Virus record (IMG/VR): IMGVR_UViG_3300008050_000019
Direction: 5' to 3' (one strand)
From: a virus
DNA: 49,320 nucleotides
The notes beneath the pieces are model-generated. The model had not been told where the DNA came from and did no database searches. It worked only from the letters and a program-made list of their open reading frames with translations. The translations under genes were made by a program, and so were the position numbers. Positions 8,289-27,937 of the stretch are shown piece by piece (position 1 is the first letter of the stretch; the number at the start of each line of letters is the position of its first letter).

Positions 8289-8293
8289 AAAAG

Positions 8294-8407: not shown

Positions 8408-8413
8408 ACCAGA

Positions 8414-8486: not shown

Positions 8487-8491
8487 ATAAA

Positions 8492-9550: not shown

Positions 9551-11136
9551 ATTTTAATTTCTTCATCTACCCAATGGGCGAAATCTATGTAGTTTTTGAA
9601 ATCAATCGGTTGACCATCATGCGTTTCACCAGACGTCAAATGCCCATCATAAATTTTATTATATAGATTATTATAATACGCAATAGCCCCAGCTGCCTCT
9701 GCGATCATCTCTGATGTTGCGATCGCAGAGATATTACCATCCCAATCATCATCTTGCATGAACGCGGCGTCTTGTAACACACCTGCTGTACGTTTTACGA
9801 AGTCCTCATATGCATCAGGACTAAGCTGTTTTTGTAGCGCTTTAATATACTTGAATAAATTGTCTGTGTTGCCTTTGTATATCCATTTAAAATATGCTTC
9901 TGGAACGAGCTCTGGAGAAGACATGACACGTTTCAGTATTTTAATCGATAATACCGGGTTGTCATCCCAATTCCTGGCATACCCATCCAAAAATCCCTTC
10001 GCAATTGACTCATTCCCACTATCAAATATTTGATTTTGTTGTTGTTTTGTTACACCATTTTCTTCTGACGCATATCTTGCTATGAAATAGTTAACTCCTT
10101 CATCATTCGCTGCAAGCGCTGCCTCTATTAAATCATTAGTGTATTTAAATCCCTCTCCATATTCGAATACGCGTAGCGCGGTAGCCGCGGATCTTACTCT
10201 GCCTGAGTTTATTAGATCAGTGACGAGTGGCCCAGTGATACTCACGGGCTCGTCATACAGCATGTCACTGATATGAGCATGCAATGTTTCATCGCTTGTT
10301 TCATTAAAAAGCTTTTCTCTGATTTCTGATGGCGTATTCGGATTTTCGAGTAGCACCGTCTGACAAGTTTTATCATTCGCATACTTTTTAATGAGTTCCT
10401 GATCATCAGTTTTTGACAAAGTATATAACAACATTTCTCCCGAACTCATGCAGTCTTCGTGAATGACTTTTATAACATCATCACCCACCATATTCTCGAG
10501 TATATCGGCGCTAAATGTAGCATCCGTTGCATCAAAATTCTGTTGTGTGAAAGGTTTAACTTCCGTGCGCACCATTGCGACTGCTATCTTATGGTACTTA
10601 TCATCTTTATCTTTTGATTTATCGATAATAAAGTAAAACTTCACCCCTCTCTTAACATATGAAGCAAAATAATTATGAGACTGAGTAGCAGCGATACACC
10701 ACTTTGTCCCCCTACCATAATAACATGACGCTTCCTTTGTCGTAACTCTCAAGACGACTATGCTTCCCTGTGCATATATTACCTGAGCACCACTCTTGGC
10801 AAGTTTTTTGTCTTCGCCTTTTGAAGTTCCGAGAATTTCAAAAGCATTTCGCAAATCGGCCAGCGTAGCATATGAATTTATATCTTTAACTTGCAGTCTT
10901 TGCTTTTCTTTTTCAAATTTCTTTATTAAGTTGACAATTTCTGCAACAGGTTCATCATTAATTGCTTGTTTTAGCATCCAGTCAAGATACTTTTTTGTAG
11001 GTGACGGGTCTGCAATAGCTAATCTATCAATTATTTTAATATGGTCAGGATACTTAACTTTTAAGTCATCAATCCTACCTTCCGAAAGAAGTGTTTTTGC
11101 TAAAACTTCTTTAATAAGCCTTTTGATATTGTCCAT
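9532..11136 (-). CDS. hypothetical large protein (534 aa)
   Basis: long ORF with even composition; no recognised motif. Confidence 0.65.
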   Translation of the reverse strand: MDNIKRLIKEVLAKTLLSEGRIDDLKVKYPDHIKIIDRLAIADPSPTKKYLDWMLKQAINDEPVAEIVNLIKKFEKEKQRLQVKDINSYATLADLRNAFEILGTSKGEDKKLAKSGAQVIYAQGSIVVLRVTTKEASCYYGRGTKWCIAATQSHNYFASYVKRGVKFYFIIDKSKDKDDKYHKIAVAMVRTEVKPFTQQNFDATDATFSADILENMVGDDVIKVIHEDCMSSGEMLLYTLSKTDDQELIKKYANDKTCQTVLLENPNTPSEIREKLFNETSDETLHAHISDMLYDEPVSITGPLVTDLINSGRVRSAATALRVFEYGEGFKYTNDLIEAALAANDEGVNYFIARYASEENGVTKQQQNQIFDSGNESIAKGFLDGYARNWDDNPVLSIKILKRVMSSPELVPEAYFKWIYKGNTDNLFKYIKALQKQLSPDAYEDFVKRTAGVLQDAAFMQDDDWDGNISAIATSEMIAEAAGAIAYYNNLYNKIYDGHLTSGETHDGQPIDFKNYIDFAHWVDEEIKIWESFV

Positions 11137-11196
11137 TATATATTATATATTGCTACGTCATTGTAATTTAATTCTAGTTTTTCTATAATTAATATT

Positions 11197-12078
11197 ATGT
11201 TTAATCGTAAGAACACTCAGAGAAGAAATATAGCATTGATAATGTGTTTGTTCACATTCAGTATTGCATGCAGTAATGTACCAAACTGCGCTAGCATTAA
11301 TATTGCCCCACAAATCGCCGCAGTTCATGACACAAAAAATCTCCCCTTCAATTCTTTTGTCACTGTCAGAAGTAAGACTTTTGAGCGGACATGCACACCA
11401 TCGTTGGCGTTAACAAGCACAGCAGCAGATGTATGCCCGATAAATATTAGAATAGCTTCTGCATCTGGTGTCGTGATTTACAAATCAATACATGATACTG
11501 GCGTTGCATACGTCCTAACAGCAAAGCATATGTGTAATACCAAGCAAGAGATTAAAGGAGACGTAATAAACCATCAATTTGTAATTAAAGATTTCAACTA
11601 TGATTCGTATGAAGCGCTATCATTTGTAAAGTCTGATGCATCGGATTCTTGTATATTGATATTTGCGCACTCGCCCGATTGGATGCAGCCAGTTGAAATC
11701 ACAGAAACTGAACCATCACTTGGTGAGCGTGTATTTAATTTAGCAGCGCCAGAAAGTATGTCTGCGAAACAAACGATGATGGTCTTTGAAGGGTTCTACT
11801 CAGGTATATATGAAGACTACCATATATTTACTCTGCCGGCGTCACAAGGGTCATCTGGTTCACCGATTTTCAATAAAGAAAATCAACTTGTTGGAATGAT
11901 TTTTGCCGTTCCAACAAGTTTAAAAGACGAAAGACTGGGCGACAGTTCAACAAGAGTTACTAAACAAACTATGGAAAATTTAGCATATGCTGTAGGCATC
12001 GATGATATCAAAGCGCTTGTTACCGTACTAGTAGACGTCGATGCTAATATAGACATCGGCAGCATAGAAAAGAATTAA
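11197..12078 (+). CDS. secreted trypsin-like (S1) serine protease, predicted lipoprotein
   Basis: His motif VLTAKHM, Ser motif GSSGSPIF, N-terminal signal ending FSIAC. Confidence 0.75.
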   Translation: MFNRKNTQRRNIALIMCLFTFSIACSNVPNCASINIAPQIAAVHDTKNLPFNSFVTVRSKTFERTCTPSLALTSTAADVCPINIRIASASGVVIYKSIHDTGVAYVLTAKHMCNTKQEIKGDVINHQFVIKDFNYDSYEALSFVKSDASDSCILIFAHSPDWMQPVEITETEPSLGERVFNLAAPESMSAKQTMMVFEGFYSGIYEDYHIFTLPASQGSSGSPIFNKENQLVGMIFAVPTSLKDERLGDSSTRVTKQTMENLAYAVGIDDIKALVTVLVDVDANIDIGSIEKN

Positions 12079-12629
12079 CGTCTACCCAATACCCTCTTTT
12101 GATATTTCTTCATCTTCCGAAGCAGAATATCACGCTTCACCCTCGAAAGTCTATCAAAAAATAGCTTGCCATCCAAATGATCAATTTCATGTTGTAAGCA
12201 GCATGAAAGCAGGCCAAAAGCTTCAACCTCAATATTTTCGCCATTCTCATTTAAGCCCTGAACTTTAATATACGTTGAACGCTCAACCTTACCTGATTGT
12301 CCAGGGACCGACATACAACGCTCAGTCCATATAGATGAGCCTCGGGATTCAACAAGCTTCGGGTTTACGATTGCCAAGCGTCCATGGCTCTTGACGTTGC
12401 TGGTGTCTTCACCATCAGCATCAAGAGGCTCAACATCAACGACAATGACACGCTCAGTCCTTCCAACTTGTGTCGCAGCGAGGCCAATTGAGCCGTGTTG
12501 ATCAATAGTATGAAACATATCTTCGATCAGTTTTCGTGTACTGTCATTAACAACCCCTACTGCCTGTGACGGTACGCGAAGTAATTTATTAGGAGCTTTA
12601 ATAACATGAAGCAATGTAGGATTATTCAT
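12075..12629 (-). CDS. def: peptide deformylase
   Basis: GLAATQVG, CMSVPG and HEIDHLDG motifs; convergent 4-nt overlap with protease gene. Confidence 0.85.
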   Translation of the reverse strand: MNNPTLLHVIKAPNKLLRVPSQAVGVVNDSTRKLIEDMFHTIDQHGSIGLAATQVGRTERVIVVDVEPLDADGEDTSNVKSHGRLAIVNPKLVESRGSSIWTERCMSVPGQSGKVERSTYIKVQGLNENGENIEVEAFGLLSCCLQHEIDHLDGKLFFDRLSRVKRDILLRKMKKYQKRVLGRR

Positions 12630-12666
12630 TTTTTATAATTTATCACCAAAGAAATACTTTAACATA

Positions 12667-12796
12667 CTTAATATTCTTCTTTCCATGAATCTTGTTTTCC
12701 CAGTAAGTCTTGAAGTTCGGCGACGCTATCTTCATCACCTGACCATATAATTTCTTTGATCTCTTCTATCAAAGAGATTAGTTCTTGTTGTGACAT
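12667..12796 (-). CDS. small acidic ORF (~42 aa) upstream of def
   Basis: ATG...TAA MSQQELISLIEEIKEIIWSGDEDSVAELQDLLGKQDSWKEEY, below ORF-track cutoff. Confidence 0.25.
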
Positions 12797-13000
12797 ATCA
12801 GTTATATCTATCATAGTAGTTAGGTATTCATTTGCTAGTGAAATGTTAACGCCGCTGCCGCTTATTTTTGATAATCCTTGGTCTTTTTGGGCCCCTGATG
12901 CGACTCATCCGTGTCATGCTGTAGTATGCACGGCGTACATAATAGTCTTTAAAAAATGTCCACTTTATCATCCGACGTCGGTGCCCGGATATTTTTAATA

Positions 13001-13019
13001 TTGACATGTACGTATAATA
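13001..13019 (+). promoter_or_regulatory. candidate promoter for the cysteine-motif gene array (TTGACA ... TATAAT at 13014..13019)
   Basis: TTGACATGTACGTATAAT 17 nt upstream of first array gene; spacer is atypically short. Confidence 0.3.
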
Positions 13020-13035
13020 CCACAAAATAAAATGA

Positions 13036-13353
13036 TTGACACATTATTTTATTTTGTGCATTATGCATAATTTACGTGGTATTTTTAATAAAATGAAAAT
13101 TCATGAAGGAGATCTTATATGGCATCATAACCGATGCGAAACGTTTATCGTCATTGAACTCGCTGCTTTTGATCTATGGAGATGGAATCCGAATTCTGAG
13201 ATAGTCTGCAGATGCTCAAACTTCGCCTGTGTAGATATTCGTGTACTAAATATAAAAACGGGTGAATTGCATAACTTCGAGACGTGCTCAGATAGCTACC
13301 ATGAACATACACAGGAGTCGACAATATTGCTTATCAGGAAGCTAACTCCATAA
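13036..13353 (+). CDS. cysteine-motif array paralog 1
   Basis: HEGDLIWHHN ... CRC ... ETCSDSYHEH; likely true start at internal M (13093). Confidence 0.55.
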   Translation: MTHYFILCIMHNLRGIFNKMKIHEGDLIWHHNRCETFIVIELAAFDLWRWNPNSEIVCRCSNFACVDIRVLNIKTGELHNFETCSDSYHEHTQESTILLIRKLTP

Positions 13354-13619
13354 TGAACATACATGAATTAAAAGATGGAGATCTTATTGCGGCTCGCCAT
13401 AATAGAAAACTATTGATAGTTGCTACTACATTTACCTATGGTAATGATATACCAGCACTTAAGAAGCCAATATGCCATTGTGGTATGCCCGCACACAGAA
13501 GTATAAAGTTATACGATTCAGCATCAAAAACCGACTTCGAAATTGTTTGTTGCAAGAATCCAGAATGCTTAGAAGATCCTTCATTAAACGGTGCTAAGTT
13601 GGTATGCTCACTTGAATGA
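13353..13619 (+). CDS. cysteine-motif array paralog 2
   Basis: KDGDLIAARHN ... CHC ... CCKNPEC; ATGA overlap. Confidence 0.6.
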   Translation: MNIHELKDGDLIAARHNRKLLIVATTFTYGNDIPALKKPICHCGMPAHRSIKLYDSASKTDFEIVCCKNPECLEDPSLNGAKLVCSLE

Positions 13620-13839
13620 AGGGAAAACGGCGAAATTTAAACCAGGAGATATGCTTTGCTCAGAAACTTTCTGCCAAAAGTTCATCATATTAAATGAAGT
13701 TATCGGTAGTGCCTGGGCATACGAGAGATTTACTTTAAACCAATGTGGTGAACTTCCTCCCTGCGGAGTGTGCCACGCTTGCCTTGTGTTGAATACAGGT
13801 TCAATGTTTTGGACACTGATACGAATGAAGTCTACGTAA
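13591..13839 (+). CDS. cysteine-motif array paralog 3 (divergent)
   Basis: KPGDMLC ... CGELPPCGVCHAC. Confidence 0.5.
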   Translation: MLSWYAHLNEGKTAKFKPGDMLCSETFCQKFIILNEVIGSAWAYERFTLNQCGELPPCGVCHACLVLNTGSMFWTLIRMKST

Positions 13840-13915
13840 GGCGCTTATGTTCATCACCAAGGTGCATTAGCAGCTTTATGAAAAACTGGATTTTGGTTAA
13901 GATAGAGGTTTCATT

Positions 13916-14158
13916 ATGAGTGAGATACTTAAGGCGGGTGATTTATTACGTTACTGGCTGCCAAGCTTTGACGGACGATACTATATTGTGCTAGAGAAAC
14001 CAGCATGCGAGACTGGTGTCTGTCATACGTGCCTTACAAAATACTATTATATAACTTTTTTTGACCTTCAATGTAGCGACTTACTACAAATAGTGTTCTG
14101 TGATGATTTTAAATGCGAGACTCAGCGAAATTGGAGTCTTGTATCTGATGGAGTGTAG
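13916..14158 (+). CDS. cysteine-motif array paralog 4
   Basis: KAGDLLRYW ... CHTC ... FCDDFKCE. Confidence 0.55.
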   Translation: MSEILKAGDLLRYWLPSFDGRYYIVLEKPACETGVCHTCLTKYYYITFFDLQCSDLLQIVFCDDFKCETQRNWSLVSDGV

Positions 14159-14381
14159 GCTCAAGCTCGGCGAAATGTGGAAAACTGGCCATAATAGTAA
14201 GTGCTTCATAGTCATTGCTCATCCAAAAGCTTTATCACATCAGTGCCCACAGTGTGGGGGCGTGTGGTACAGAGTACAAATATATTATACGTCAAATCCT
14301 CTCCTGCGAGTAGGGTTGCTTGTCTGTGAAGCTGATGAATGCTTCAAGAGCACAGCATTAAATTTTGTGTCCTCAATCTAG
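14100..14381 (+). CDS. cysteine-motif array paralog 5
   Basis: LGEMWKTGHN ... CPQC ... VCEADEC; true start probably internal. Confidence 0.5.
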   Translation: MMILNARLSEIGVLYLMECRLKLGEMWKTGHNSKCFIVIAHPKALSHQCPQCGGVWYRVQIYYTSNPLLRVGLLVCEADECFKSTALNFVSSI

Positions 14382-14430
14382 TAATATATCGTGTATTTCG
14401 TATACTACAAGTAATAAAATTATTTAGGAA

Positions 14431-14676
14431 ATGAATAACCCATTTGAAATAGGCAAGTTATACCATGATACATCCGATACTGAGAAAGCCATTGTTATAT
14501 CTGAACCTTGGATTTTTTGTCGTTGGGATTGCACCACATGTGGACAGGATATCTATGCAGTAACTACTGTAGCATTTCCCCCTATATATTCCGAAGAAGT
14601 CAGGCGTGATAGAATAATATACTGTAAATCGCCAAAATGCAAAGATTACGAGACGACATGGGTGGTTTGTGCTTAA
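14431..14676 (+). CDS. cysteine-motif array paralog 6
   Basis: EIGKLYHD ... CTTC ... YCKSPKC. Confidence 0.6.
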   Translation: MNNPFEIGKLYHDTSDTEKAIVISEPWIFCRWDCTTCGQDIYAVTTVAFPPIYSEEVRRDRIIYCKSPKCKDYETTWVVCA

Positions 14677-14911
14677 CAAGCATGATCTGAAGGTTGGTGC
14701 ATTATGCTATATGAACAACAAAATCATAGCAGACTATGATTTTTTTGTTGTTGTAGATGTCAACTTACCATGTGATGCAATATGTGCACCCTGTAATCAC
14801 CCTTCCCTATTAATAGACGCTTTGTTTCTTCGTGACTACATCCTCATGCGTTATACGATTTGTGCTGCAGGATGTTCCACAACATTATATGAGATTGAGG
14901 TGGTAGTTTGA
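14669..14911 (+). CDS. cysteine-motif array paralog 7
   Basis: KVGALCYMNN ... CAPC ... ICAAGC. Confidence 0.55.
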   Translation: MLNKHDLKVGALCYMNNKIIADYDFFVVVDVNLPCDAICAPCNHPSLLIDALFLRDYILMRYTICAAGCSTTLYEIEVVV

Positions 14912-15210
14912 AATATGACCCGGCGTTCCATCAAGAGTCATTTATGTCGGCAAGCGTTGTCGGGGTTGGTGATATTTGCATCTTTTATGGCTACAAAAAC
15001 TCGGCGGCGCTGGTGGCTGAGATTCGTGATTTATCTGAGGGCAGCCGGAAATGTTATTGTACACAAGACACGAACAAAGAGCAAACAATGAAGATGATAA
15101 AATTATATTATGTGCAGCATAACATTATCGCCACAGAGGTGTGTTGTACATCTCCATTATGTCATAGGTTTCGATACAGAACAGCTGTCGTTCACGCAGG
15201 CATCGAGTGA
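14908..15210 (+). CDS. cysteine-motif array paralog 8
   Basis: GVGDICIFYG ... CYC ... CCTSPLC; ATGA overlap. Confidence 0.6.
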   Translation: MKYDPAFHQESFMSASVVGVGDICIFYGYKNSAALVAEIRDLSEGSRKCYCTQDTNKEQTMKMIKLYYVQHNIIATEVCCTSPLCHRFRYRTAVVHAGIE

Positions 15211-15554
15211 TGGAGATTTTGCCAGTGGTGATGCCGTCCTTTACACCCGCTTTTTTTAGTAGCCGCACAAAAGTGGCTGAGGTTCATGATTTATTACATT
15301 TTACGTGTGATGGTCGAAGATCATCAGCGATCGTCCTCCGCGTCGCACCTATATGTACAATACGCAGATGCAGATGTATTTTAGGTAGTACAGGTCCCTG
15401 GAATGGGCCAGAAACGTTTACATTGGCCCAAGTGTATGTATTTTTTTGTTCAACAGGATGTCTAATTAATTTAGATTATTGTAATAGTCCGACGTGTAAC
15501 ACCGCACATTTTATTGTTCAAAACACCACCACACTCGAAAGGCTGTCAGAATGA
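15207..15554 (+). CDS. cysteine-motif array paralog 9
   Basis: EVHDLLHF ... CRC ... YCNSPTC. Confidence 0.6.
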   Translation: MMEILPVVMPSFTPAFFSSRTKVAEVHDLLHFTCDGRRSSAIVLRVAPICTIRRCRCILGSTGPWNGPETFTLAQVYVFFCSTGCLINLDYCNSPTCNTAHFIVQNTTTLERLSE

Positions 15555-15874
15555 CAATGACAGAAGCAACGGCATGTGATTTATTTATTAGACCACATAT
15601 GAGTACCGTCGGTGCTGCGTTCGCACCCAGCGATTTGTTATATTTTCCGCCCCGATCTTATGAAGCACGGTATGGTGTTGTTCTTAAAGTAGAACAAGAG
15701 ACCAGCAAAAGCCAATGTAGATGTACCATCGCCGCAGACCCTAAAGATCGCGCGTTTTTAAGCTATGTCTACGTATATCTTTTTGATACTCATGACATCA
15801 GTAAATTAACATATTGTATTAATACTAAATGTGGCAATGGCTGGTTCTACCCTAAAGTAATAGGTAACCTATAG
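15551..15874 (+). CDS. cysteine-motif array paralog 10
   Basis: CRC ... YCINTKC. Confidence 0.6.
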   Translation: MTMTEATACDLFIRPHMSTVGAAFAPSDLLYFPPRSYEARYGVVLKVEQETSKSQCRCTIAADPKDRAFLSYVYVYLFDTHDISKLTYCINTKCGNGWFYPKVIGNL

Positions 15875-15875
15875 T

Positions 15876-16220
15876 ATGGATCTTTTGTCCCATATATACA
15901 TAGTGCCATTTATGAAAATAGGCGGCTCATACCCACAGGTACATGATTTAGCCTTTATTCCGTGGTATAGTCATCTTGCGAGAAACAAACATATATGTAT
16001 TATTGTAGAGATAATATCAGCTAAAACCGTAATTTGTAAGTGTTCGAAAAGTGATGTCCACAAAGGCGCAACGCCAATTCTGTACGTTCAAGTATACATT
16101 TTAAGTCTTAAAATTACTAAAAATTTAACTTGTTGTATTAATCCGGAATGCACGCAGCCTAGCAATAGCATGGAAACAGTTAGCATACTTCCACAGAAAG
16201 GTTCAAATGGACGATTATAG
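15876..16220 (+). CDS. cysteine-motif array paralog 11
   Basis: QVHDLAFIPW ... CKC ... CCINPEC. Confidence 0.6.
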   Translation: MDLLSHIYIVPFMKIGGSYPQVHDLAFIPWYSHLARNKHICIIVEIISAKTVICKCSKSDVHKGATPILYVQVYILSLKITKNLTCCINPECTQPSNSMETVSILPQKGSNGRL

Positions 16221-16497
16221 ACTTTCATTTATACATACTGACGTTCTTCCGGAAGCAGGTGATTTAATTATCGTACCTCATGTAGATTTATACGCAATCG
16301 TTATTGGCACGCCAGAGTCTCACTCATATTTTTGCCGGTGCATGAGTTCAAGAAAAGAAAAATATAGGTCAGTCAGTTCTGTTAACCTATATTTCATTAA
16401 CATGAATAAGTATCGGACACTGACATGGTGCACTGCACCTTCTTGTGATGAATCTGGGATTTATCCAGTTTTCATTACAATACGAACAGAAATATGA
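16207..16497 (+). CDS. cysteine-motif array paralog 12
   Basis: EAGDLIIVPH ... CRC ... WCTAPSC. Confidence 0.6.
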   Translation: MDDYRLSFIHTDVLPEAGDLIIVPHVDLYAIVIGTPESHSYFCRCMSSRKEKYRSVSSVNLYFINMNKYRTLTWCTAPSCDESGIYPVFITIRTEI

Positions 16498-16524
16498 CGT
16501 GCTATATACAATCAAGGTATCCAA

Positions 16525-16869
16525 ATGACTGAGAAAATCAAAAAACCAATTGCATATATCACACCTAGCCTTTCAATTCGTGATCAATATGACGCAGTTA
16601 TACAACGACCAGAGATCGGTGATATGTTGGCGTTGTTGACATATGCTCAAACAATGTCCTATGACAAAGCAATTATCATTGAAACTGAAGCTTTGGTCGA
16701 CAAGTGTGCTTGCTGGTGCAGCAGGCATGGGGAGCCAATGTGGCTTACTGAGTTGACATGTTTCGATGTAACAACGAGGGTGCTGTACACACCAACGTAT
16801 TGCAAATCTCCCAATTGTGATGAACACAGAAATTTGTCACGAATTATACGATATAGGAGCAAGAAATAA
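16525..16869 (+). CDS. cysteine-motif array paralog 13
   Basis: EIGDMLALL ... CACWC ... YCKSPNC. Confidence 0.6.
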   Translation: MTEKIKKPIAYITPSLSIRDQYDAVIQRPEIGDMLALLTYAQTMSYDKAIIIETEALVDKCACWCSRHGEPMWLTELTCFDVTTRVLYTPTYCKSPNCDEHRNLSRIIRYRSKK

Positions 16870-17220
16870 GTGTCTATTAAAGACATTGCATACTTAATAC
16901 CCAGCATAAAAGTGGGAATGAGCGATGGCAAGCCTCCTGGTCCTGGTGACGTCTTATTAGCGCTACCAGCGGCTGGGACCTCCTCCACGGAGGAGACTGG
17001 AGTCATCACCGGCTCTGCGCCCATCGAGTGTTATTACCTTTGTGCATGTCAAAAGTACGCTATAACGAAGATATCCACACTTGTCGCAGTTTATTTTTTC
17101 TCGCTTTTATATAAAGATGTTGGGCGAGCAATATATTGCAGTGAACCTAACTGTAATAAACATAATGTAACTGTAACTGGAATCCGATACGAAACGCGAG
17201 AGACAAAATGCTATTTATAG
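16870..17220 (+). CDS. cysteine-motif array paralog 14 (GTG start)
   Basis: GPGDVLLAL ... CAC ... YCSEPNC. Confidence 0.55.
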   Translation: MSIKDIAYLIPSIKVGMSDGKPPGPGDVLLALPAAGTSSTEETGVITGSAPIECYYLCACQKYAITKISTLVAVYFFSLLYKDVGRAIYCSEPNCNKHNVTVTGIRYETRETKCYL

Positions 17221-17531
17221 AACCACATGCAAAAGAGCTAACCGCACTTAATCCAGGTGACATAATATTTAAAGCTCCTGGAACTACCGATGTCGTTGGT
17301 GATATCGGGTTTGCAGTTATTGATAACATTAGGCCCGCGGTCAATGTTGGTTGCTTGTGCAATAGAGCTTGTAGAGGTATCATTAAGTTGGAAAAGGCAC
17401 TCACGGTAGTAACGTTTTTCTCTTTAAGCAATAATTGCTTAGACTGGTTCACGTATTGTACCAACCCTAACTGTAGTGAAGGTAGGGTCACTTACTGCGT
17501 GATAAAATACAAAAAGGGCGGGATAGAATGA
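17208..17531 (+). CDS. cysteine-motif array paralog 15
   Basis: NPGDIIFKAP ... CLC ... YCTNPNC. Confidence 0.6.
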   Translation: MLFIEPHAKELTALNPGDIIFKAPGTTDVVGDIGFAVIDNIRPAVNVGCLCNRACRGIIKLEKALTVVTFFSLSNNCLDWFTYCTNPNCSEGRVTYCVIKYKKGGIE

Positions 17532-17836
17532 GTCATACTGAATTAGATAGTGATATAGTGCCAACTATAGCCACACTCCTTCCTCATGTCGGCGACTTAC
17601 TCATTATTAACACACGGACTTACGTTGTTACCAATGACAAGTTTACCCTTGAAGATTACTACTTCTGCGAAGAACACTATAAAGAGCGCAAAAAGAGCAT
17701 TGTTATACTTGACACATTTTGCCTAGAAGAGAATTATTGCGCATACCTCATTTGCTGCATTGAACCTGGATGTAATTCTGCAGACAATGACGTGGCAATT
17801 GTAAAATATGAAAGGAGAAAGCAGGATGAGCTATAA
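17528..17836 (+). CDS. cysteine-motif array paralog 16
   Basis: HVGDLLIIN ... FCEEH ... CCIEPGC; ATGA overlap. Confidence 0.6.
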   Translation: MSHTELDSDIVPTIATLLPHVGDLLIINTRTYVVTNDKFTLEDYYFCEEHYKERKKSIVILDTFCLEENYCAYLICCIEPGCNSADNDVAIVKYERRKQDEL

Positions 17837-18149
17837 TATATACAAAGGAAAGCTCGTACGCGTGCATAAAGGTGTACAGCTAGGTGATCTTCTTATAGAG
17901 CGTGGTAACTATGAAGACAGTTCTATGCTGATGACGAATGTCATCGTCGGCCAGGAGACTGAGAGTCAACGCCTTTATTGCTCGTGTCTCTTACCACCCG
18001 AGCCCCATAAATCGACCATTCGCTGGATTCGTGCGTATAATGTCGAGGATGACTATAGCTTATATCATACTTTTTGCGCGAACCCAGAGTGCGTTGAAGC
18101 CGTCAGGTGTGATATCGACATAATCTATATGAGTAAAGACCATGAATAA
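17808..18149 (+). CDS. cysteine-motif array paralog 17
   Basis: QLGDLLIERG ... CSC ... FCANPEC. Confidence 0.6.
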   Translation: MKGESRMSYNIYKGKLVRVHKGVQLGDLLIERGNYEDSSMLMTNVIVGQETESQRLYCSCLLPPEPHKSTIRWIRAYNVEDDYSLYHTFCANPECVEAVRCDIDIIYMSKDHE

Positions 18150-18489
18150 AAGTAAGTGGAGGAAACAAATGACTGAAGCCTTATATTGGCCCGCTTTCGT
18201 GTCAAGTCAACCAGGAGGTCCGATGACCCCAGAACCTGGCGATTATTTTTATACAAAAGAACAAATTGGGCAGAACGAAACGTCAGGAATTGTCATTCAT
18301 GCTGAACTTAATTCTGAGAGATATTGTTCTTGCCAGCGTTGTTTACCGAAAAGGGTGTTCACTGTCTTCGACGTTGAACTTGCCTTCTTCCCTCCCGACT
18401 TTGCACGTCATCTGACATGGTGCACAAACACGCGATGCAACGTGTCATCTTATTGCCCCAACCTTGTCAAACTTGAACCTACAGAGTAA
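18142..18489 (+). CDS. cysteine-motif array paralog 18
   Basis: EPGDYFY ... CSCQRC ... WCTNTRC. Confidence 0.6.
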   Translation: MNKSKWRKQMTEALYWPAFVSSQPGGPMTPEPGDYFYTKEQIGQNETSGIVIHAELNSERYCSCQRCLPKRVFTVFDVELAFFPPDFARHLTWCTNTRCNVSSYCPNLVKLEPTE

Positions 18490-18919
18490 TCCTGCCTAGC
18501 TATCCACTTGTCACGCGCAACAGGGGCACCACCCTACGACGCCCAAAAAAACACTCGAGAAAAATTTGAGAAGTGCGACAAAATGGTCTTGTATGGGTGT
18601 GGTGGGCAATGGTTGGGAAAGTTTTGGGCAGCGGGGGACAAAATTTCTCTCGAAAATCTGGAAAAATCTCCCAGCAGAGAAGGGCGCTTAGGCCGCCCTA
18701 GGCAGCCCCACAGGCCGCCCACACACCTTGCTACGGGCCGGGGGGCCCCAGGCCCCCGTTATATAGGCCCCAAGGGGCCCCCAAGAGGGGCCAGGCCCCT
18801 ACGTGCAGAATGATGAGGGGTACTATGGGGCTCTCCAGAATGCCGACACGAGTGCTCCTGTGCACGCAGAATACAGGGAAGTCCCGGGCTCTGTACAGGT
18901 CTAAATAAAATAAAAAAAG

Positions 18920-19090
18920 CCTGTACAGTCTCTGATTTTCCACTGTCGAAAATAAGTGAATTTAGCTGTATCTATTTCCTCGAGCCTGTGTTACTATATT
19001 CTTACCAGGTCAGGAATGGCACTGGGAAAACGGAGTTTAAATAATTATAAAATAATCCTGTTCTTTGAACCGAGATTGTGTTATAATATT
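18920..19090 (+). repeat. ~170-bp direct repeat, copy 1 (promoter-bearing leader of GC-rich paralog 1)
   Basis: cctgtaca..ccactgtcgaaaa.aagtgaa...ctgtatctattt...taccaggtcaggaatggcactg..gagtttaaataattataaaataatcctgttcttt..gagatt.tgttataat recurs at 21470..21640. Confidence 0.7.
19077..19087 (+). promoter_or_regulatory. extended -10 promoter TGTGTTATAAT
   Basis: matches the window-wide consensus TGTGTTATAATATTCTTA; 56 nt upstream of ATG 19144. Confidence 0.55.
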
Positions 19091-19143
19091 CTTACCAACT
19101 GGGGAGCTTAAAACCTTCCCCCCAAACAGAAAGCAGAGTCACT

Positions 19144-19671
19144 ATGACCTTCAAATTTACCGTCGGACAAACCTACAACGTCATCGACGAGAAGGGAGCC
19201 CGCGTCAACAAGGCCGGTGTGGTCGCCATCTCCGAACGGGAGAACAAGGGTGTCCTTACTCCTGACATGGACCTTGAGTACATCGGGAAGGCCGCCAAGG
19301 ACACGCCCCAGGCCGGACACCACATGTTCAAATTGCCCGAGGGTGTTGAAATCCTGGGTGAGACCACGATCGCCGGAGTCCGAAACCACTTCGACTTCAA
19401 TGCGGCTTACGTTCAAGCCAAGAAAAATATCCCGACCAAGGGGACGCTGCAGGAGCGTGCCGACGAGGCCACTCGCCAAGCGGAAGCAGCCAGCGACCAT
19501 GCCGAGAAGCTGCAAAGGATTGCTGCAGACCTGAGGGTCGAAATCCTCTGCCTCCAAGCGGATGAGCAGAAGGCTGCGGAGGCTGCGGCTAAGACACAGG
19601 CCGAAATCGACGCCTCCTGGGATGAGGCTGAGGCACAAGCCTCAGGGTACACCACCAACGCCCCAGAGTAA
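19144..19671 (+). CDS. GC3-rich paralog family member 1 (175 aa, N-terminal conserved domain and Ala/Glu-rich C-terminus)
   Basis: GxTYNVI..KGA...PDMDL.Y.GK...HH.F.LPEGV..LG..TI.G..NHFD shared with 21873..22409 and 40570..41214; GC-rich codons in an AT-rich genome. Confidence 0.7.
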   Translation: MTFKFTVGQTYNVIDEKGARVNKAGVVAISERENKGVLTPDMDLEYIGKAAKDTPQAGHHMFKLPEGVEILGETTIAGVRNHFDFNAAYVQAKKNIPTKGTLQERADEATRQAEAASDHAEKLQRIAADLRVEILCLQADEQKAAEAAAKTQAEIDASWDEAEAQASGYTTNAPE

Positions 19672-19684
19672 TGGGCACTGGGAC

Positions 19685-19712
19685 GGGGGAGGGAAATCTC
19701 CCCCTTCTCTTT
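19685..19712 (+). terminator. intrinsic terminator
   Basis: 7-bp G/C stem GGGGGAG/CTCCCCC, loop GGAAAT, then TTCTCTTT, 14 nt after stop of 19144..19671. Confidence 0.6.
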
Positions 19713-19784
19713 ATGGTAATGAGGATTGACTTCTTTGCCATAAAGAGGATTGACACCCCTCTGTATTCTTCCCGACCATTCCCT

Positions 19785-20183
19785 ATGAAAGTGGGTATTC
19801 TCTTGTCGCAACTAAAATGTAACGCTGTATTCTCCTTCTCACCTGGTGGTTCTGTGCGTGCAGTCATCACCGGTGACAGGCCAGGTGAGCATTCCTTCAA
19901 ACCTGACCTTGATCGCTCTCTAAACGAGAACATCTACGATTTCCTGCATTCCCAAGGGAATGGTGAGGGTCTAGAATTTATCATTCAGGCAAGGCATTTC
20001 CTGACCTCTCCCAAGAACGCCGAGGGTAAGTTCCACTGGTCCACTCGTGATTCTGTGGGACACGAATCCATTGAGGTTTCCTATGTGGGTATCCCCAAGA
20101 ACGCTGGATTCTCCGATGTCGTTTCCGCGTTCTTTCCTGGCCTGGCTAAACGCCGGCAACCTCAGGCAGCTGCCTGTTCTTGA
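19785..20183 (+). CDS. hypothetical protein (start uncertain)
   Basis: ORF 19671..20183 overlaps a terminator; internal ATG at 19785 keeps frame (MKVGILLSQ...). Confidence 0.3.
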   Translation: MKVGILLSQLKCNAVFSFSPGGSVRAVITGDRPGEHSFKPDLDRSLNENIYDFLHSQGNGEGLEFIIQARHFLTSPKNAEGKFHWSTRDSVGHESIEVSYVGIPKNAGFSDVVSAFFPGLAKRRQPQAAACS

Positions 20184-20714
20184 TGGTTCGTGACATTCTG
20201 GTCAACCCGTCGTTCTTCATTCCTGATGCCTGCCTTTCTGCTGGACTATTCCTCATCCGGTACCCATTCCTGCTCACCAGTCTAGTCTAGCCTAGCATTC
20301 TTCAGGATTCCTGCCATTACCACGTTCCTCCATCAGGAATGCCCAGAGCCATGAGGCTCCTTTCTGGTCCTTCCGGATAGGAATGATGATGGATTCCACA
20401 TCCCGCCATAAATGAGCACCCGGGCATTCCTGTAACACTGGTCAAGAGCGCTTGTTCCTCATATTTCTAACCCTTTGTAGTCTCGCCTCTTTCTTGGCTT
20501 CGCGCCTTTTCCTGCGGGCATTCCTGGCTATGGCCTTTCTTGGCCAGCTCATAAATACAGAGAACGCTATGCAGATTCCCATCACGATTACGAAGACGGG
20601 ATCAAACATGCGAGTGTTCTGTGGTTGCGGTTGCGGTTGCTTCTTCCGCTCCCATCTGGTCCACCAGCAAAATCCTCAACCCAAGGCTTGGAGCTTCAAG
20701 CCCTCTTTCCTCAA

Positions 20715-21038
20715 TCACCTGTTATACACACCTTCAATTGGGTGTGGTGTGGGCTTGATGTCCCAACCTTGGCGTGGCTCTACGGTGAGGTCAGCCCCTT
20801 GAAGTGGGATGACACGCCATCTCGTTCGGGAGTTACGTAGCGTATCAAACGAATCAAGAAACATTTCTAGCGCTGCTTCCGGCGTTTCTGCTGCGTACAC
20901 GCCCTTAAACATGTGGCCGTAGCTTGCCTTACAGATCTTCTCAGGGTCGGCATCTAAAGCGACCTGGAGTATCATCCAAAGAGGCAGCCACGATCCGGCC
21001 CTGGATGTATGAATATGAATTCCCTGCTTACTTGTCAT
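20715..21038 (-). CDS. hypothetical protein, leaderless start
   Basis: TGTGATATAATATTCCT immediately precedes ATG on minus strand; 3' end runs into motif-dense GC region. Confidence 0.4.
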   Translation of the reverse strand: MTSKQGIHIHTSRAGSWLPLWMILQVALDADPEKICKASYGHMFKGVYAAETPEAALEMFLDSFDTLRNSRTRWRVIPLQGADLTVEPRQGWDIKPTPHPIEGVYNR

Positions 21039-21085
21039 AGGAATATTATATCACAGGTGATTGAGGAAAGATACAACTAAGTGAT

Positions 21086-21391
21086 TTATTGTTTATCCCT
21101 TGGTAGAGATCTTCCAGGTCCCGAGGTAAATGACCTCGGTTTGTACGTTTCTGTGCCTGGCCGGAGTGGGATGCTGCCTTCACTTTTCACTTCCCAATCA
21201 TCGCCCATGATCTCAGCCACCGTGGCGTCAGTGCCCGCTATCCACTCCTGTCTGGTGAACGTAAGATTGTGCGCAGCCCTAGAAAGAAGAACTCCATCCC
21301 ACTTCAAGTTTGAAGCGAATGTGTTCGCTGGTGCCGCGAGGTTCACGTAGACTGGGTGCTCCCGTGTTGCAGGGATGTCGGTCAACTTCAT
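21086..21391 (-). CDS. hypothetical protein, leaderless start
   Basis: TGTGATATAATATTCTT-ATG on minus strand; upstream conserved GTATCTTTCCTCAATCAC box shared with 20715..21038. Confidence 0.45.
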   Translation of the reverse strand: MKLTDIPATREHPVYVNLAAPANTFASNLKWDGVLLSRAAHNLTFTRQEWIAGTDATVAEIMGDDWEVKSEGSIPLRPGTETYKPRSFTSGPGRSLPRDKQ

Positions 21392-21469
21392 AAGAATATT
21401 ATATCACAAGTGATTGAGGAAAGATACCATTAAGTTCATTATGATTTATTTTCAATTAGCAGAGAAAAA

Positions 21470-21640
21470 CCTGTACAAGGCACGAAATTCCACTGTCGAA
21501 AAAGAGTGAAAATAACTGTATCTATTTTTCTGAGCCTATGATACCATATTCATACCAGGTCAGGAATGGCACTGAGTAAATACTGAGTTTAAATAATTAT
21601 AAAATAATCCTGTTCTTTTGAATGAGATTATGTTATAATT
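21470..21640 (+). repeat. ~170-bp direct repeat, copy 2 (leader of GC-rich paralog 2)
   Basis: see 18920..19090. Confidence 0.7.
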
Positions 21641-21810
21641 GAAAGGACGGAGGAGATAGAAACGGTACGGAAATAAAAATTAATATATAAATAAAAAAAC
21701 CTTTTAAAATAACCGAGTTTATGTTATAATAATCTTACGGAAACGGAGCAAAAACAAAAAACTTAAATATTAAATATAAATAAAACAAACCTTTTCTCGG
21801 TACCGAAACC

Positions 21811-21820
21811 GTGTTATAAT
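21811..21820 (+). promoter_or_regulatory. promoter GTGTTATAAT (last of four stacked promoter-like boxes 21530..21830)
   Basis: boxes ATGATACCATATTC, ATGTTATAATTG, ATGTTATAATAATC, GTGTTATAATAATC in tandem before ATG 21873. Confidence 0.5.
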
Positions 21821-21872
21821 AATCTAACAACGGGGACCTAATAAATCCTCCCTAACACAAAGGCAAATACAT

Positions 21873-22409
21873 ATGGCTATCTCACTCATCGTCGGCAACA
21901 CCTACAACGTCATTGGGGCGAAAGGGGCGTTTACCAACGCGCAGATTATGGTGGCGATTTCCGAGAACAAGCAGGTCGGCCTTGTCACCCCTGACATGGA
22001 CCTGAAATACCTCGGGAAGCTTGCGGGCGGCAAGAGCGGCGGGAAGCATCACACCTTCCAACTCCCCGAGGGAGTAACCGTGCTGGGCAGCAACACCATC
22101 GTGGGACACCCGAACCACTTCGATGTGGCAGCAGGGTACAACGCGAACAAGGTTGGGGCGACCAAAGGGACCCTCGCCGAGCAAATCGCCACGGCATCCC
22201 GCAATGTAGCGGAAGCCCAGGCTCACCTGGCACGAGCCCAAGGCCGCATGGCAGAACTGGAGCAGAAACGAGTCGAGACCGAAGCGGGCATCGAAAAGGC
22301 AGCCGCCGAAAAGGCGAAAGCCGGGCCCTGCACCGTCTTCACCCCCGAGGAGATCGCTGGGTGGGAGCAAATGGAAGCTGAGCGAAAGGCCGCCGCTTCC
22401 GCTGAGTAA
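21873..22409 (+). CDS. GC3-rich paralog family member 2 (178 aa)
   Basis: conserved N-terminal domain shared with 19144..19671; Ala/Glu/Lys-rich C-terminus. Confidence 0.7.
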   Translation: MAISLIVGNTYNVIGAKGAFTNAQIMVAISENKQVGLVTPDMDLKYLGKLAGGKSGGKHHTFQLPEGVTVLGSNTIVGHPNHFDVAAGYNANKVGATKGTLAEQIATASRNVAEAQAHLARAQGRMAELEQKRVETEAGIEKAAAEKAKAGPCTVFTPEEIAGWEQMEAERKAAASAE

Positions 22410-22421
22410 TCAATAACCTCC

Positions 22422-22455
22422 GGGGAGGGCTCACGCCCTCCCCACTTTCTCTGTG
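22422..22455 (+). terminator. intrinsic terminator
   Basis: 9-bp stem GGGGAGGGC/GCCCTCCCC, loop TCAC, then ACTTTCTCT. Confidence 0.6.
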
Positions 22456-22653
22456 TTCTTAATGAGTATTCTTGCGCTGACCCTGGTATATCCTTGGTCA
22501 TGGAGTTCCGCCCATTAAGAACACAGAGAGGGTCTCTGGGTTCCCCCCTTTGATTCTTCGTGACCATTCCATGGTTACATACCCATGATAGTTCTCGTTA
22601 TTCTGGTTAAGAGCCAGTGTTCTCTGTGACTGTCCTACCACCATTCCTTAGGA

Positions 22654-23148
22654 GTGTTCTCTGTGATTAACTGCGAAGCTGTATTCTCCCTAATTCCCAC
22701 GCCGGGTGTTTCTGGCCCTGGGAATTCTGTCAAGATGGTTGTTCTTAATGGGCGTTCTGAAGAAAGGATCTGGCCCACTGCGTTCCTGCCTGGTGTTTCT
22801 TTGGCTGAGATGGCTGACAACATTCTTCGGACCATTCTTCCGACCAAGACCCAGGATATCCTGGTTGAGGAAACTATCATCCTTCCTGACGGGACTGTTA
22901 CAGTATTCTTCAGTCTCACCAATCCAGATGAGCCCATTCTCCTGACGGAGCCCTATGTTCCGGTTGACGACCAGGATATTCTGCATGTGGTTCCCTTCGT
23001 TCCGAATTCTTCAGAACTGGCGTCTATTCTCTCTTCACTGGAGAATGCCAGGTATGATATTCCGGACAATTCCGCATTCTCAAAGAATGGTCCCGTCGTC
23101 ATGGTTCCTTGGGAACCAATGATTTGTGTCCAGCGTCCCCGGAAATAG
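22654..23148 (+). CDS. hypothetical protein (164 aa) in GC-rich island
   Basis: six-frame ORF; preceded by GTGTTCTCTGTGA direct repeats. Confidence 0.4.
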   Translation: MFSVINCEAVFSLIPTPGVSGPGNSVKMVVLNGRSEERIWPTAFLPGVSLAEMADNILRTILPTKTQDILVEETIILPDGTVTVFFSLTNPDEPILLTEPYVPVDDQDILHVVPFVPNSSELASILSSLENARYDIPDNSAFSKNGPVVMVPWEPMICVQRPRK

Positions 23149-23322
23149 CATGATCACTCAGCTAAAAACTTTTTTCATAAATCCCCTTGTGCTGGCTTTG
23201 CTGGTCATCTTTCCGGCTAGCCTGTACGGGGGTAAGGGAGTTTATTTCTTGCTTAGCCTTCTGTAGCCCAGCATTCCCTCTCTAATAATGTTGTAATATT
23301 TTTGTATCTTTCGGGGTATGGC

Positions 23323-23813: not shown

Positions 23814-23814
23814 C

Positions 23815-23862
23815 TCCCCATTCTCCTCGTTCTCCCCACCCTCCTCGTTCTCCCCACCCTCC
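23815..23862 (+). repeat. tandem 21-nt repeat (2.3 copies) CCTCCTCGTTCTCCCCACCCT
   Basis: direct tandem copies immediately after stop of 23358..23813. Confidence 0.6.
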
Positions 23863-23942
23863 TCATTCTCTTCATGATATAATATCGTAATTTTTCTGTA
23901 TTCTCTGTGATATGATCGTATTATAATATTTTTAGGAAAAAA

Positions 23943-24284
23943 ATGGAAACCGAATTTGAATACCCTGACTGGGAAAAAATTAGGGCTAAACACCCAAACA
24001 TGATCATCGGATCAACTTTTTATCATGGCTGTGGTGAATTTATCGCTTCCATCAACGGTCAGCGCTTTTGGAAGGGAGGGGTAGAAGAGGGCGACGGCAA
24101 CACATTGGTTGAAAAAGCGATATCAACGTACGATATGGTTCAGCGGAGAATGGAAGCTGCTGGAGTCACACATTGCCTCGTTGATGAAGAAGATCCCAGC
24201 ATGGAACTTCGCCCCATCCAAAAATTCTTCGATGAAGATCGAGAGCGCGCCGCAGATGTCTATTACGACATCTGCGACTACTGA
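23943..24284 (+). CDS. hypothetical protein (113 aa)
   Basis: module promoter then ATG. Confidence 0.55.
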   Translation: METEFEYPDWEKIRAKHPNMIIGSTFYHGCGEFIASINGQRFWKGGVEEGDGNTLVEKAISTYDMVQRRMEAAGVTHCLVDEEDPSMELRPIQKFFDEDRERAADVYYDICDY

Positions 24285-24356
24285 TTTCTCTTTCTAATAA
24301 TGTTGTAATACTCTTGTGTCCTCAGGGATATGATTGTATTACAATATTTTTAGGAA

Positions 24357-24371
24357 TTGGGAATTTCCCAA
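24357..24371 (+). promoter_or_regulatory. operator-like palindrome TTGGGAATTTCCCAA at or just after predicted transcription start
   Basis: perfect 7-bp arms; related palindromes in the same module position at 26491, 27895, 28255, 40510. Confidence 0.5.
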
Positions 24372-24393
24372 CATCCAAACAAGGAGCAAAATT

Positions 24394-25122: not shown

Positions 25123-25195
25123 CCTGCCATTCTCTTTCTAATAATGTTGTAATATTCTTGTATCTTCCGAGAATATTCGTGATATAATATTATTA

Positions 25196-25618: not shown

Positions 25619-25712
25619 ACTCCTCGTTAAATTCTCTTTCTAATAATGTTGTAATATTCTTGTATCTTCCGAGAATATTCGTGATATAATATTATTAGGA
25701 GTTAAACACTAC

Positions 25713-26172: not shown

Positions 26173-26418
26173 ATGACACAAACTCATATAATTTTATCTT
26201 ATGAAGATCTGAGTCTTCGTTTATGTGATCAGGGCACCCGTGATGACCTGATCAAGCTTTTGAATGAAGGGTGGAAACCTGAGCCTGGGCCGTTCTCCCT
26301 TTGGGACATCACCGATGACGGCCACATCTATAAGGTAAATACGTACCTAGGCAAAATCGTGATTGCCCCATTACCTAAAGGTGGTAACTCCCTTGATGTC
26401 ACGTCGTTAATTGACTAA
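26173..26418 (+). CDS. hypothetical protein (81 aa)
   Basis: six-frame ORF. Confidence 0.5.
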   Translation: MTQTHIILSYEDLSLRLCDQGTRDDLIKLLNEGWKPEPGPFSLWDITDDGHIYKVNTYLGKIVIAPLPKGGNSLDVTSLID

Positions 26419-26526
26419 ATTCTCTTTCTAATAATGTTGTAATACTTTTGTATCTTTCGGGACATGATCGTATTATAATATTTTTAGGAATTGGGAATTT
26501 CCCAACATCCCTTTACAGGAGTTAAT

Positions 26527-26931: not shown

Positions 26932-27177
26932 AGTGCAGTGGCGAGTTTAGGGAATCGACTGGGTGGATTTATACCAAATGGGACGCTGAGAACACTGCAC
27001 CAAACACTTGCGCTCGGAAGCCCTATGGCCAGAGGAGAAAAAGAGGGAAATAATCCCCCTAATTTCCTTCTCTAATAATGTTGTAATATTCTTGTGTCCT
27101 CAGGGATATGATTGTATTACAATATTCTTAGGAATTGGGAATCACTGAGGTCACCCTCCATTGCAAAGCAGGTAAGT

Positions 27178-27545: not shown

Positions 27546-27830
27546 ATGGAAAATGCGGATATTGAATCCAAACTCATCTCTGATGAACTCCTTCGCCTCT
27601 CCACCCTCGATACCTTCCGAACCGTCGCATTTCGGGTCAAGGGAATTGACCCGGGTGAATATGGGGGTGGGCACGAACTTCAAGCAATCTGTTTTGAGTT
27701 TCTGGAAGAGTCGAACTCCAAGGACTTCATGGGTCTGACGGACGCCGATTTGGACGAAGGGCCAGGAATCTGGTACAGACTGAATGATGATCTCACCACC
27801 TTCATGCAAGAATTTAGCTTCAAAAGCTGA
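27546..27830 (+). CDS. hypothetical acidic protein (94 aa), leaderless
   Basis: TGTGTTATAATATTCCT-ATG. Confidence 0.55.
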   Translation: MENADIESKLISDELLRLSTLDTFRTVAFRVKGIDPGEYGGGHELQAICFEFLEESNSKDFMGLTDADLDEGPGIWYRLNDDLTTFMQEFSFKS

Positions 27831-27937
27831 TTCCCTTCTCTAATAATGCTGTAATATTCTTGTATCTTCCGGGATATGATTGTATTACAATATTTTTAGG
27901 AATTGGAATTAATCCAATATCCAAACAAGGAGTTTCT

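Follow-up and report, generated by a model that had tools for sequence, protein, structure and literature searches.

The left end of coliphage T7 (Dunn and Studier 1983) reportedly combines a 160-bp terminal repeat with short repeats, the tandem host promoters A1-A3, and gene 0.3. Here we describe a similar arrangement within a 49,320-nucleotide stretch of viral DNA (IMG/VR record IMGVR_UViG_3300008050_000019; hereafter “the window”), in which a GC-rich island at positions 18490-23200 carries two paralogous genes, P1 and P2, behind tandem promoters. On the balance of the evidence, this island is probably a vertically inherited, codon-retuned start-up module, located where a linear jumbo-phage genome physically ends. 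It resembles the T7 left end in its putative short terminal repeat, a non-coding region of repeats and palindromes, stacked promoters of the strong type used by host RNA polymerase, a small acidic first protein, and the orientation of every gene away from the end. It differs in that the genome measures ~308 kb and includes roughly 28 transfer RNA (tRNA) genes, in that the terminus was deduced rather than mapped, and in that the first gene family, with a predicted SH3-like barrel and helix, is unrelated to Ocr. To our knowledge, T7 shows neither strong synonymous recoding nor a gradient in the GC content of third codon positions (GC3).

A partition of codon usage between early and late genes is a known phenomenon in tRNA-carrying phages of the T4 type (PMC5683454). 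As in these phages, codon use in the genome described here appears to differ by expression class (predicted in our case), and the phage tRNAs match the codons of the AT-rich bulk genes. The present case stands out by an unusually sharp and local contrast (GC3 0.74 vs about 0.35), which is tied to the genome-end position and is conserved for a single gene family in phages that differ widely in GC content. The second point of comparison is provided by PA5oct and the Rak2-like phages, AT-rich jumbo phages which depend on host RNA polymerase and carry many tRNAs; in PA5oct, highly transcribed early genes and abundant non-coding RNAs lie near the termini (PMC7318152). These are the only cultured relatives of the phage described here, and the relationship is limited to part of one 534-aa window protein which remotely matches PA5oct-like Pseudomonas jumbo phages (26-34% identity over 25-38% of length). 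There is no DNA similarity to PA5oct, and none, near or distant, was detected between the window and 50,697 deposited phage records. Together with the lone remote protein match, this points to an uncultured jumbo phage as the source genome, apparently a giant marine phage. The window matches part of a 308,593-bp metagenomic contig (ENA ERZ27249009, k141_306648) at 99.96% identity, and also encodes a peptide deformylase along with numerous small orphan proteins.

Base composition and codon usage of the island

A preliminary description of the locus had proposed an abrupt switch from AT-rich DNA to roughly 55-60% GC, with a return to AT-rich sequence on both flanks. Sliding-window analysis does show a discontinuity, with a rise at ~18.5 kb, and no other 4.7-kb segment of the stretch is as GC-rich as 18490-23200, but the overall GC content of this segment is 50.2% (vs 42.3% for the whole window and 39.0% for 1-18489) and is not uniform. 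To the right of the island, GC remains at 45.8% up to 29.5 kb and then declines gradually to ~41%, i.e., this side stays GC-richer than the left one and the flanks are therefore not symmetric. The compositional anomaly is thus real, but smaller and patchier than first described, and forms a mosaic rather than a uniform block (Table 1). Two of its proposed components were recovered as described: P1 and P2 are indeed GC3-biased paralogs (44% protein identity, E 3e-37), and the stretch of G/C palindromes at 18500-18830, in which no convincing open reading frame (ORF) was found, contains the string quoted at the time as well as 8 of the window’s 10 GGCCCC hexamers, all within 18742-18799.

The GC excess of P1 and P2 lies mainly at third positions and is directed toward C-ending codons, while GC3 ranges from 0.27 to 0.47 in 14 left-side genes and from 0.37 to 0.62 in right-side genes. 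P1 and P2 thereby display the codon bias relative to other genes of the same genome that would be expected of translationally tuned, highly expressed genes. Codon shares in the two genes reach 100% for TAC, 81% for AAC, 79% for GAC, 78% for ATC, 72% for ACC, 57% for GTC, and 50% for TCC, with AAG and GAG each near 69%. Within four-fold boxes, C is strongly preferred over G (ACC 72 vs ACG 16, GTC 57 vs GTG 22, TCC 50 vs TCG 0), a pattern that GC pressure by itself would not explain and that speaks for selection on codons. An explanation based on amino-acid composition alone, in which an Ala/Gly/Glu-rich coiled coil would raise GC content with no codon choice involved, can draw on the makeup of the two proteins (17% Ala, 8.5% Gly), on a GC1 of 0.64, and on an internal paralog from another phage (P0007, see below) which lies 4-12 GC points above its neighbours at ordinary GC3. 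However, GC3 is the largest deviation in P1 and P2 (+0.2 to +0.4 over neighbours), while their GC2 (0.41-0.45) falls inside the neighbours’ range (0.22-0.51). Amino-acid composition is therefore the smaller part of the GC excess, and is very unlikely to account for all of it.

The tRNA repertoire of the phage offers a potential rationale for this recoding. The window encodes a block of 26-28 tRNA genes on the minus strand (400-8563), which includes an unusual tRNA-Asn with anticodon ATT and a Ser tRNA scored as selenocysteine (Sec)-like by Rfam. For Thr, Pro, Ser, and Gly, only U34-type tRNAs are present, and no tRNA-Ala was found among the window tRNA genes, so that ACC, CCC, TCC, and GCC have no exactly matching phage tRNA. 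Judging from the gene content, these favoured codons probably depend on host tRNAs. Across the eleven boxes served by phage U34 tRNAs, A-ending codons make up 21% of the total in P1 and P2, compared to 45% for genes on the left and 34% for those on the right.

Table 1. Position and main characteristics of features in and around the GC-rich island, and of comparable features in related phage loci (window coordinates unless a locus is named).
Feature	Coordinates	Strand	Characteristics
Segment X	18579..18683	.	105 nt, G-tract rich; putative direct terminal repeat and candidate junction of physical genome ends
GC-rich non-coding element	18684..18830	.	147 nt; GC 70.1%; GGCCCC/GGGGCC palindromes
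Segment with P1 promoter block	18831-19143		GC 41%
P1 promoter block	18915..19095	+	Two extended -10 boxes: TGTTACTAT at 18989, TGTTATAAT at 19079
P1 5' stem-loop	19101..19120	+	In 5' untranslated region; GGGGAG...CUUCCC
P1	19144..19671	+	175 aa; predicted SH3-like beta-barrel, long helix, acidic tail; GC 58.5%; GC1/GC2/GC3 0.64/0.41/0.71
Segment 3' of P1	19672-21391		GC ~51%
Terminator-like hairpin 3' of P1	19685..19704	+	
RTTCY array A	19700..20650	+	Overlies ORF A (19671-20183) and non-coding spacer (20184-20441)
Three small genes	20442..21391	-	55 aa (membrane-like), 107 aa, 101 aa
Segment with P2 promoter array	21392-21872		GC 29%
P2 promoter array	21465..21830	+	Four tandem -10 boxes ~90 nt apart; 24-33% GC; repeats D1-D3
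P2	21873..22409	+	178 aa; P1 paralog; GC 60.9%; GC1/GC2/GC3 0.64/0.45/0.74
Segment 3' of P2	22410-23148		GC 49.4%
Terminator-like hairpin 3' of P2	22422..22443	+	
RTTCY array B	22450..23300	+	Overlies ORF B (22654-23148)
P3 (third paralog)	40570-41214	+	214 aa; GC 55%; GC3 0.59; same promoter type and 5' stem-loop; type II hammerhead ribozymes on either side
Type II hammerhead ribozymes	40403-40464, 41228-41290, 41750-41814, 42240-42303	+	Between small plus-strand genes; two bracket P3
Hammerhead ribozymes, L018	5714-5778, 6211-6274, 8110-8173		
RTTCY array, L011	10305-11860		
RTTCY array, L013	3673-5960		
RTTCY array, L015	810-1710		

Conservation of the module across phage lineages

The same succession of parts was observed in four diverged phage lineages with genome GC contents of about 42 to 65% (loci L018, L011, L013, and L016), where a GC-rich element homologous to 18684-18830 (mean column identity 63%) is followed by 2-4 tandem extended -10 promoters, a stem-loop, and the P1-family gene. 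Conserved words within the element include AGGCCGCCCC, GGCCCACATACAGTG, GGGGCCCCGTTAGGGGCCCG, GGGGCCGGGGCCCC, and CAGAA. The stem-loop in the 5' untranslated region of the relatives is of the GGGGA...UCCCC type, and all eight family loci examined have an equivalent structure downstream of the -10 box and ahead of the ATG. Within the window, repeats D1-D3 make the P1 promoter block 85% identical to 21465-21639, and matches to the promoter pattern TGNTATAAT are more than three times as frequent as expected (70 vs 21.7). Based on these predicted signals, both P1 (two boxes) and P2 (four boxes) would combine strong promoters with stabilising messenger RNA (mRNA) ends.

The compositional contrast is likewise shared. 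Asked of related phages, the question of whether any compositional shift exists at this position was answered positively in most loci, where the GC content of the family gene exceeds that of its contig (63 vs 55.5% in L011, 50 vs 38.5% in L012, 67 vs 57% in L013, 60 vs 42-47%, a margin of 14-18 points, in L017-19), favouring a conserved trait, and only in L015/16 are gene and contig equally GC-rich (65 vs 64-65%). GC3 follows the same pattern, with values of 0.87 in L011, 0.49 in L012, and 0.84 in L013 against neighbour means of 0.65, 0.32, and 0.66, respectively, and 0.80 for the gene in L017-19; in L011, L012, and L013, the family gene is the highest or near-highest of its neighbourhood for both GC and GC3. 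A single family thus retains a sharp codon bias in phages whose genome GC ranges from about 38 to 57%. In the SPJK phage, the 105.8-kb contig, which encodes rIIB, RNase T, NUDIX, and tRNAs, includes both a 234-aa family copy with a GC3 of 0.80 and the internal second paralog P0007, for which GC3 is 0.29, equal to its neighbours. The ordinary codon use of this internal copy indicates that the bias follows genomic position and expression context rather than the protein itself. The earlier suggestion of a “codon-retuned module” is therefore supported: the excess lies mainly at third positions and is directed to C-ending codons, and the elevated GC3 recurs in the equivalent copy of other phages, irrespective of their genome GC, and is absent from the internal paralog. 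At a larger scale, L018 mirrors the window, with an AT-rich tandem array of small paralogous genes on the left and a GC-richer domain on the right.

Horizontal acquisition from a GC-rich donor (host or other phage) followed by incomplete amelioration, which had been suggested alongside codon retuning, would be consistent with the atypical composition, the abrupt step at 18.5 kb, and the orphan status of the island genes in the annotated phage collection. This scenario is now largely refuted, and we consider it highly improbable. A search for island-gene homologs in bacterial genomes yielded no donor: homologs were restricted to phage-like contigs among 1.84 billion cluster representatives, and a single Myxococcota metagenome-assembled genome (MAG) contig, which also carries an integrase and a transposase, was the sole family match in 185,579 species-representative genomes. 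The island includes no integrase, transposase, or attachment site (att)-like flank, none of the ORFs between 18.1 and 23.2 kb has a Pfam match, and the repeats present are promoter duplications. Further, AT-rich promoters of the phage’s own type are found inside the island, and the module is syntenic in the four diverged phages, with a gene GC-richer than its surroundings in L018, L011, and L013 and equal to them in L015/16. The locus hence shares a compositional discontinuity with classical genomic islands, but differs from them by the lack of donor and mobility genes and by its conserved position in relatives.

In the Myxococcota MAG (JANQQN010000029.1; L027/L029), the only case of a family member in a cellular genome bin, the gene lies at 6001-6477 of L027, near a phage integrase, a DDE transposase, and a TIR-pentapeptide gene, and the encoded protein has a basic Lys/Ala/Thr-rich rather than acidic tail. 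This contig may be a prophage or mis-binned.

Overall, the P1 family is a new, small, and phage-specific protein family. Profile searches of the 1.84 billion cluster representatives recovered 14 proteins, including a third paralog in the window (P3). An N-terminal domain of ~95 residues is common to the family; its invariant positions are Y11, G18, S30-E31, Y46, G48, G72, N81-H82, and Y89 (GHxNHFD motif), and it is followed by a long helix and a variable, usually very acidic tail. AlphaFold models are confident (predicted local distance difference test, pLDDT, 88-90), and the N-terminal domain may form an SH3-like barrel, with SH3, PsaE/NdhS, KOW, and Tudor proteins as candidate fold relatives. 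No match was obtained in sequence searches of PDB, Pfam, and PHROGs, in a Foldseek structure search of BFVD, in a tblastn search of P1 against the 50,697 phage records, or in scans of IMG/VR by protein and by DNA pattern, and a word-indexed search of 5.8 billion proteins with P1 and with ORF A recovered only the queries themselves.

A putative genome end next to the island

Evidence for a genome end comes from the boundaries of contigs in five independent assemblies. Three contigs (L002, L003, and L005, from ERZ27249216, JGI 3300010150, and JGI 3300037635) start at 18579/18580, and two others (L021 and L022, from ERZ27249147 and JGI 3300006924) end at 18683. The whole 105-nt segment X is thus present on both left and right contigs, in the orientation expected for a terminal repeat. 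Virion DNA carrying a direct terminal repeat of 105 bp at 18579-18683 would leave this pattern, and we consider such a physical end fairly likely from these assemblies. Similar words, GAGAAGTGCG (18568-18579) and GAGAAGGGCG (18677-18687), mark the boundaries of X, and could represent paired recognition or nicking sites for terminal-repeat formation. To the left of this position, an array of ~10 small (80-116 aa) tandem paralogous genes on the plus strand (13353-18489) ends at the putative genome end; a zinc-ribbon-like Cys motif (C-x-N/E-P-x-C) terminates at least the last six of these genes, and the analogous AT-rich array of L018 (1-2600) displays an FKIGDLV motif. The idea that X is a clean insertion relative to other phages was withdrawn, as its 3' half aligns with the GGGCAGCCGTTCG...CTCGAG segment of the relatives.

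Alternatively, the contig breaks could be assembly artefacts, and X and the GC-rich element an origin of replication, a regulatory hub, or an RNA gene. Two contigs do read through X, the element lies in a divergent intergenic region in both L011 and L013, near AT-rich promoters and iteron-like motif arrays, and the RNA of 18490-18960 folds better than shuffled sequences (z = -3.6). A repeat or variant branch would however not leave the whole of X on left and right contigs. X is shorter than the final assembly k-mer (141) and occurs once in the ~60 kb of genome searchable, and the populations are near-clonal (0-8 single-nucleotide polymorphisms per 10-20 kb between samples), so that neither a repeat nor a strain variant would produce the observed pattern. 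GC dropout is excluded as a cause of the breaks, since the contigs on the right run through the element of 70% GC. An RNA gene finds no support in covariation (the RNAalifold covariation term is unfavourable) or in Rfam, for which the best island hit in E-value mode was E = 0.28, with all hits far below gathering scores. Overall, we regard this alternative as unlikely. As the element is conserved in sequence but shows no covariation, a DNA signal is favoured over an RNA, and a role in end processing or packaging appears most likely, although a function as RNA is possible.

Codon usage also shows a gradient. Across 51 non-paralog right-side genes, GC3 becomes lower the further a gene lies from 18579 (rho -0.57, p 1.5e-5), from a mean of 0.51 at 0-11 kb to 0.41 at 11-26 kb and 0.37 at 26-30 kb, which is consistent with a genome end at this position. 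This gradient is also central to the main rival explanation for the GC3 excess, namely a non-adaptive process of GC-biased gene conversion, caused by frequent recombination or repair at the genome end and between the paralogs and decaying inward. In line with such a process, the gradient affects all genes and not the paralogs alone, a 70%-GC non-coding element sits right at the end, and the 85% identity of the promoter blocks, compared to only 44% for the proteins, hints at conversion. Conversion would however not be expected to favour C-ending codons so far above G-ending ones, or to leave intergenic promoter DNA within the island at 29-41% GC. In addition, P3 is again a GC outlier among its own neighbours although it lies 22 kb inward from the putative end, and the GC3 excess follows the promoter-rich copy in each phage. 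We thus consider GC-biased conversion improbable as an explanation for the recoding of P1 and P2.

Under our preferred interpretation of a codon-retuned start-up module, the terminal repeat and GC-rich element would serve in end processing or packaging, and host RNA polymerase would fire from the stacked, host-type extended -10 promoters, with the 5' stem-loop and terminator stabilising the resulting short mRNAs. The terminus-proximal P1 and P2, synonymously recoded to G/C-ending (mainly C-ending) codons and avoiding the A-ending codons of bulk genes and phage tRNAs, would then be translated efficiently on host tRNAs. This could allow rapid and abundant synthesis of their products ahead of phage tRNA accumulation.

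Several observations weigh against this interpretation. The terminus was deduced solely from contig ends, i.e., from assemblies and not reads, and the two contigs that span X are the 308-kb contig and a Logan contig, although concatemers or low-k joining could give rise to both of these. The terminal repeat of PA5oct is 39 kb long (PMC7318152), compared to a putative 105 bp here. In terms of codon usage, GGG represents 40% of Gly codons in P1 and P2, and neither this nor the AAG/GAG preference corresponds to classic optimal-codon choices. Independence from phage tRNAs would also be only partial, since the phage encodes G34 tRNAs for the NNC codons of Asn, Asp, Tyr, His, Phe, Ile, and Val, along with a likely Lys-CUU tRNA (6953-7027) missed by ARAGORN. 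Finally, part of the GC excess stems from amino-acid composition, as detailed above, and the “host codon dialect” attributed to P1 and P2 is putative.

Motif arrays, neighbouring genes, and a possible start-up system

The third paralog, the likely terminus, and a set of motif arrays were all absent from the preliminary description. The motif, RTTCY, occurs on the plus strand directly downstream of P1 and P2 in forms such as CATTCC, TATTCT, and GTTCC, and is enriched 4-5-fold relative to local dinucleotide content in both array A (26 copies vs 7.0 expected, with a maximum of 16 in 500 Markov simulations) and array B (32 vs 7.3, maximum of 17 in 500 simulations). Copies are found in all three reading frames, across the non-coding spacer and two orphan ORFs, and the 5' part of array B is homologous to array A (repeats D9 and D11). 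No homologs of ORF A were found, but it displays a gene-like codon periodicity and is possibly coding; the plus-strand RNA of region A folds unusually well (z = -5.1). In relatives, the consensus is sharper (RR-C-R-TTC-Y) and strongly strand-biased downstream of the family gene, with 39 vs 8 copies on the two strands in L011, 24 vs 8 in L013, and 13 vs 1 in L015. The motif often overlaps the stop codon of the family gene or adjoins start codons.

These arrays may represent iterons, a processing signal, or structured RNA. Other candidate functions were rejected. A sponge for CsrA/RsmA on the minus strand, where the arrays contain CAGGAAUG copies, does not fit with array B lacking a minus-strand promoter, with a relatives’ consensus (RGAAYGC) that often lacks GGA, or with the co-orientation of the arrays with plus-strand genes. 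The motif is also not a -35 or discriminator promoter element, as it has no consistent -10 partner in relatives, and the arrays are not tandem or peptide repeats, as Tandem Repeats Finder returned trivial repeats only and copies occur in three frames.

The motif also occurs within type II hammerhead ribozymes. A 6-7-nt motif copy lies inside five of the seven hammerheads called by Rfam (those starting at 41750 and 42240 in the window, and at 5714, 6211, and 8110 in L018), and in the two inspected window hammerheads the motif makes up the sequence 3' of the point of cleavage (GUC|AUUCUGG). An additional hammerhead was recognized by eye in L012 (~1175-1250). The position of the window hammerheads between small genes, and their recurrence in L018 and L012, suggest that early polycistronic RNAs are processed by ribozymes in these phages.

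The three small minus-strand genes of the island had no match in Pfam or PHROG. The 107-aa and 101-aa genes are preceded by duplicated promoters (repeat D4), TGTGATATAATATTCCTATG at 21038-21053 and 21391-21406, with TATAAT, ATTCCT, and the ATG in succession, an arrangement which implies leaderless or near-leaderless mRNAs. Further right, an intergenic 18-nt tandem repeat, CTCCCCACCCTCCTCGTT, spans 23814-23870 (3.2 copies, 92% matches), and 67-108-nt intergenic blocks are repeated with 86-100% identity at 24281-24386, 25129-25195, 25631-25697, 26414-26510, 27059-27142, and 27827-27932. Each of these blocks places paired -10 boxes before a successive small gene, as a modular promoter cassette.

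A more ambitious proposal, which we put forward as speculative and rather doubtful, is that a lineage of marine jumbo phages maintains a two-dialect genome, in which host-type G/C-ending codons and a conserved GC-palindrome end signal would mark the first-entering end, and an abundant new SH3-like protein would act on the dense RTTCY arrays located immediately after its gene, either as DNA iterons or as structured RNA, in an undescribed start-up or take-over system.

If our preferred interpretation of the island as a codon-retuned start-up module is correct, this phage would provide a natural example of a genome split into two codon regimes, a host-compatible one for the first-expressed genes and an AT-rich one, served by the phage’s own tRNAs, for the remainder. 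This split would be anchored to a physical end and shared by phages whose base compositions differ widely. The analysis also raises three leads, namely the probable terminus of the genome, the non-coding element conserved next to it, and the new family of small proteins. More broadly, it has long been discussed whether early phage genes are adapted to the host while the tRNAs of the phage are there for the late ones, and this idea would become directly testable in an uncultured lineage.

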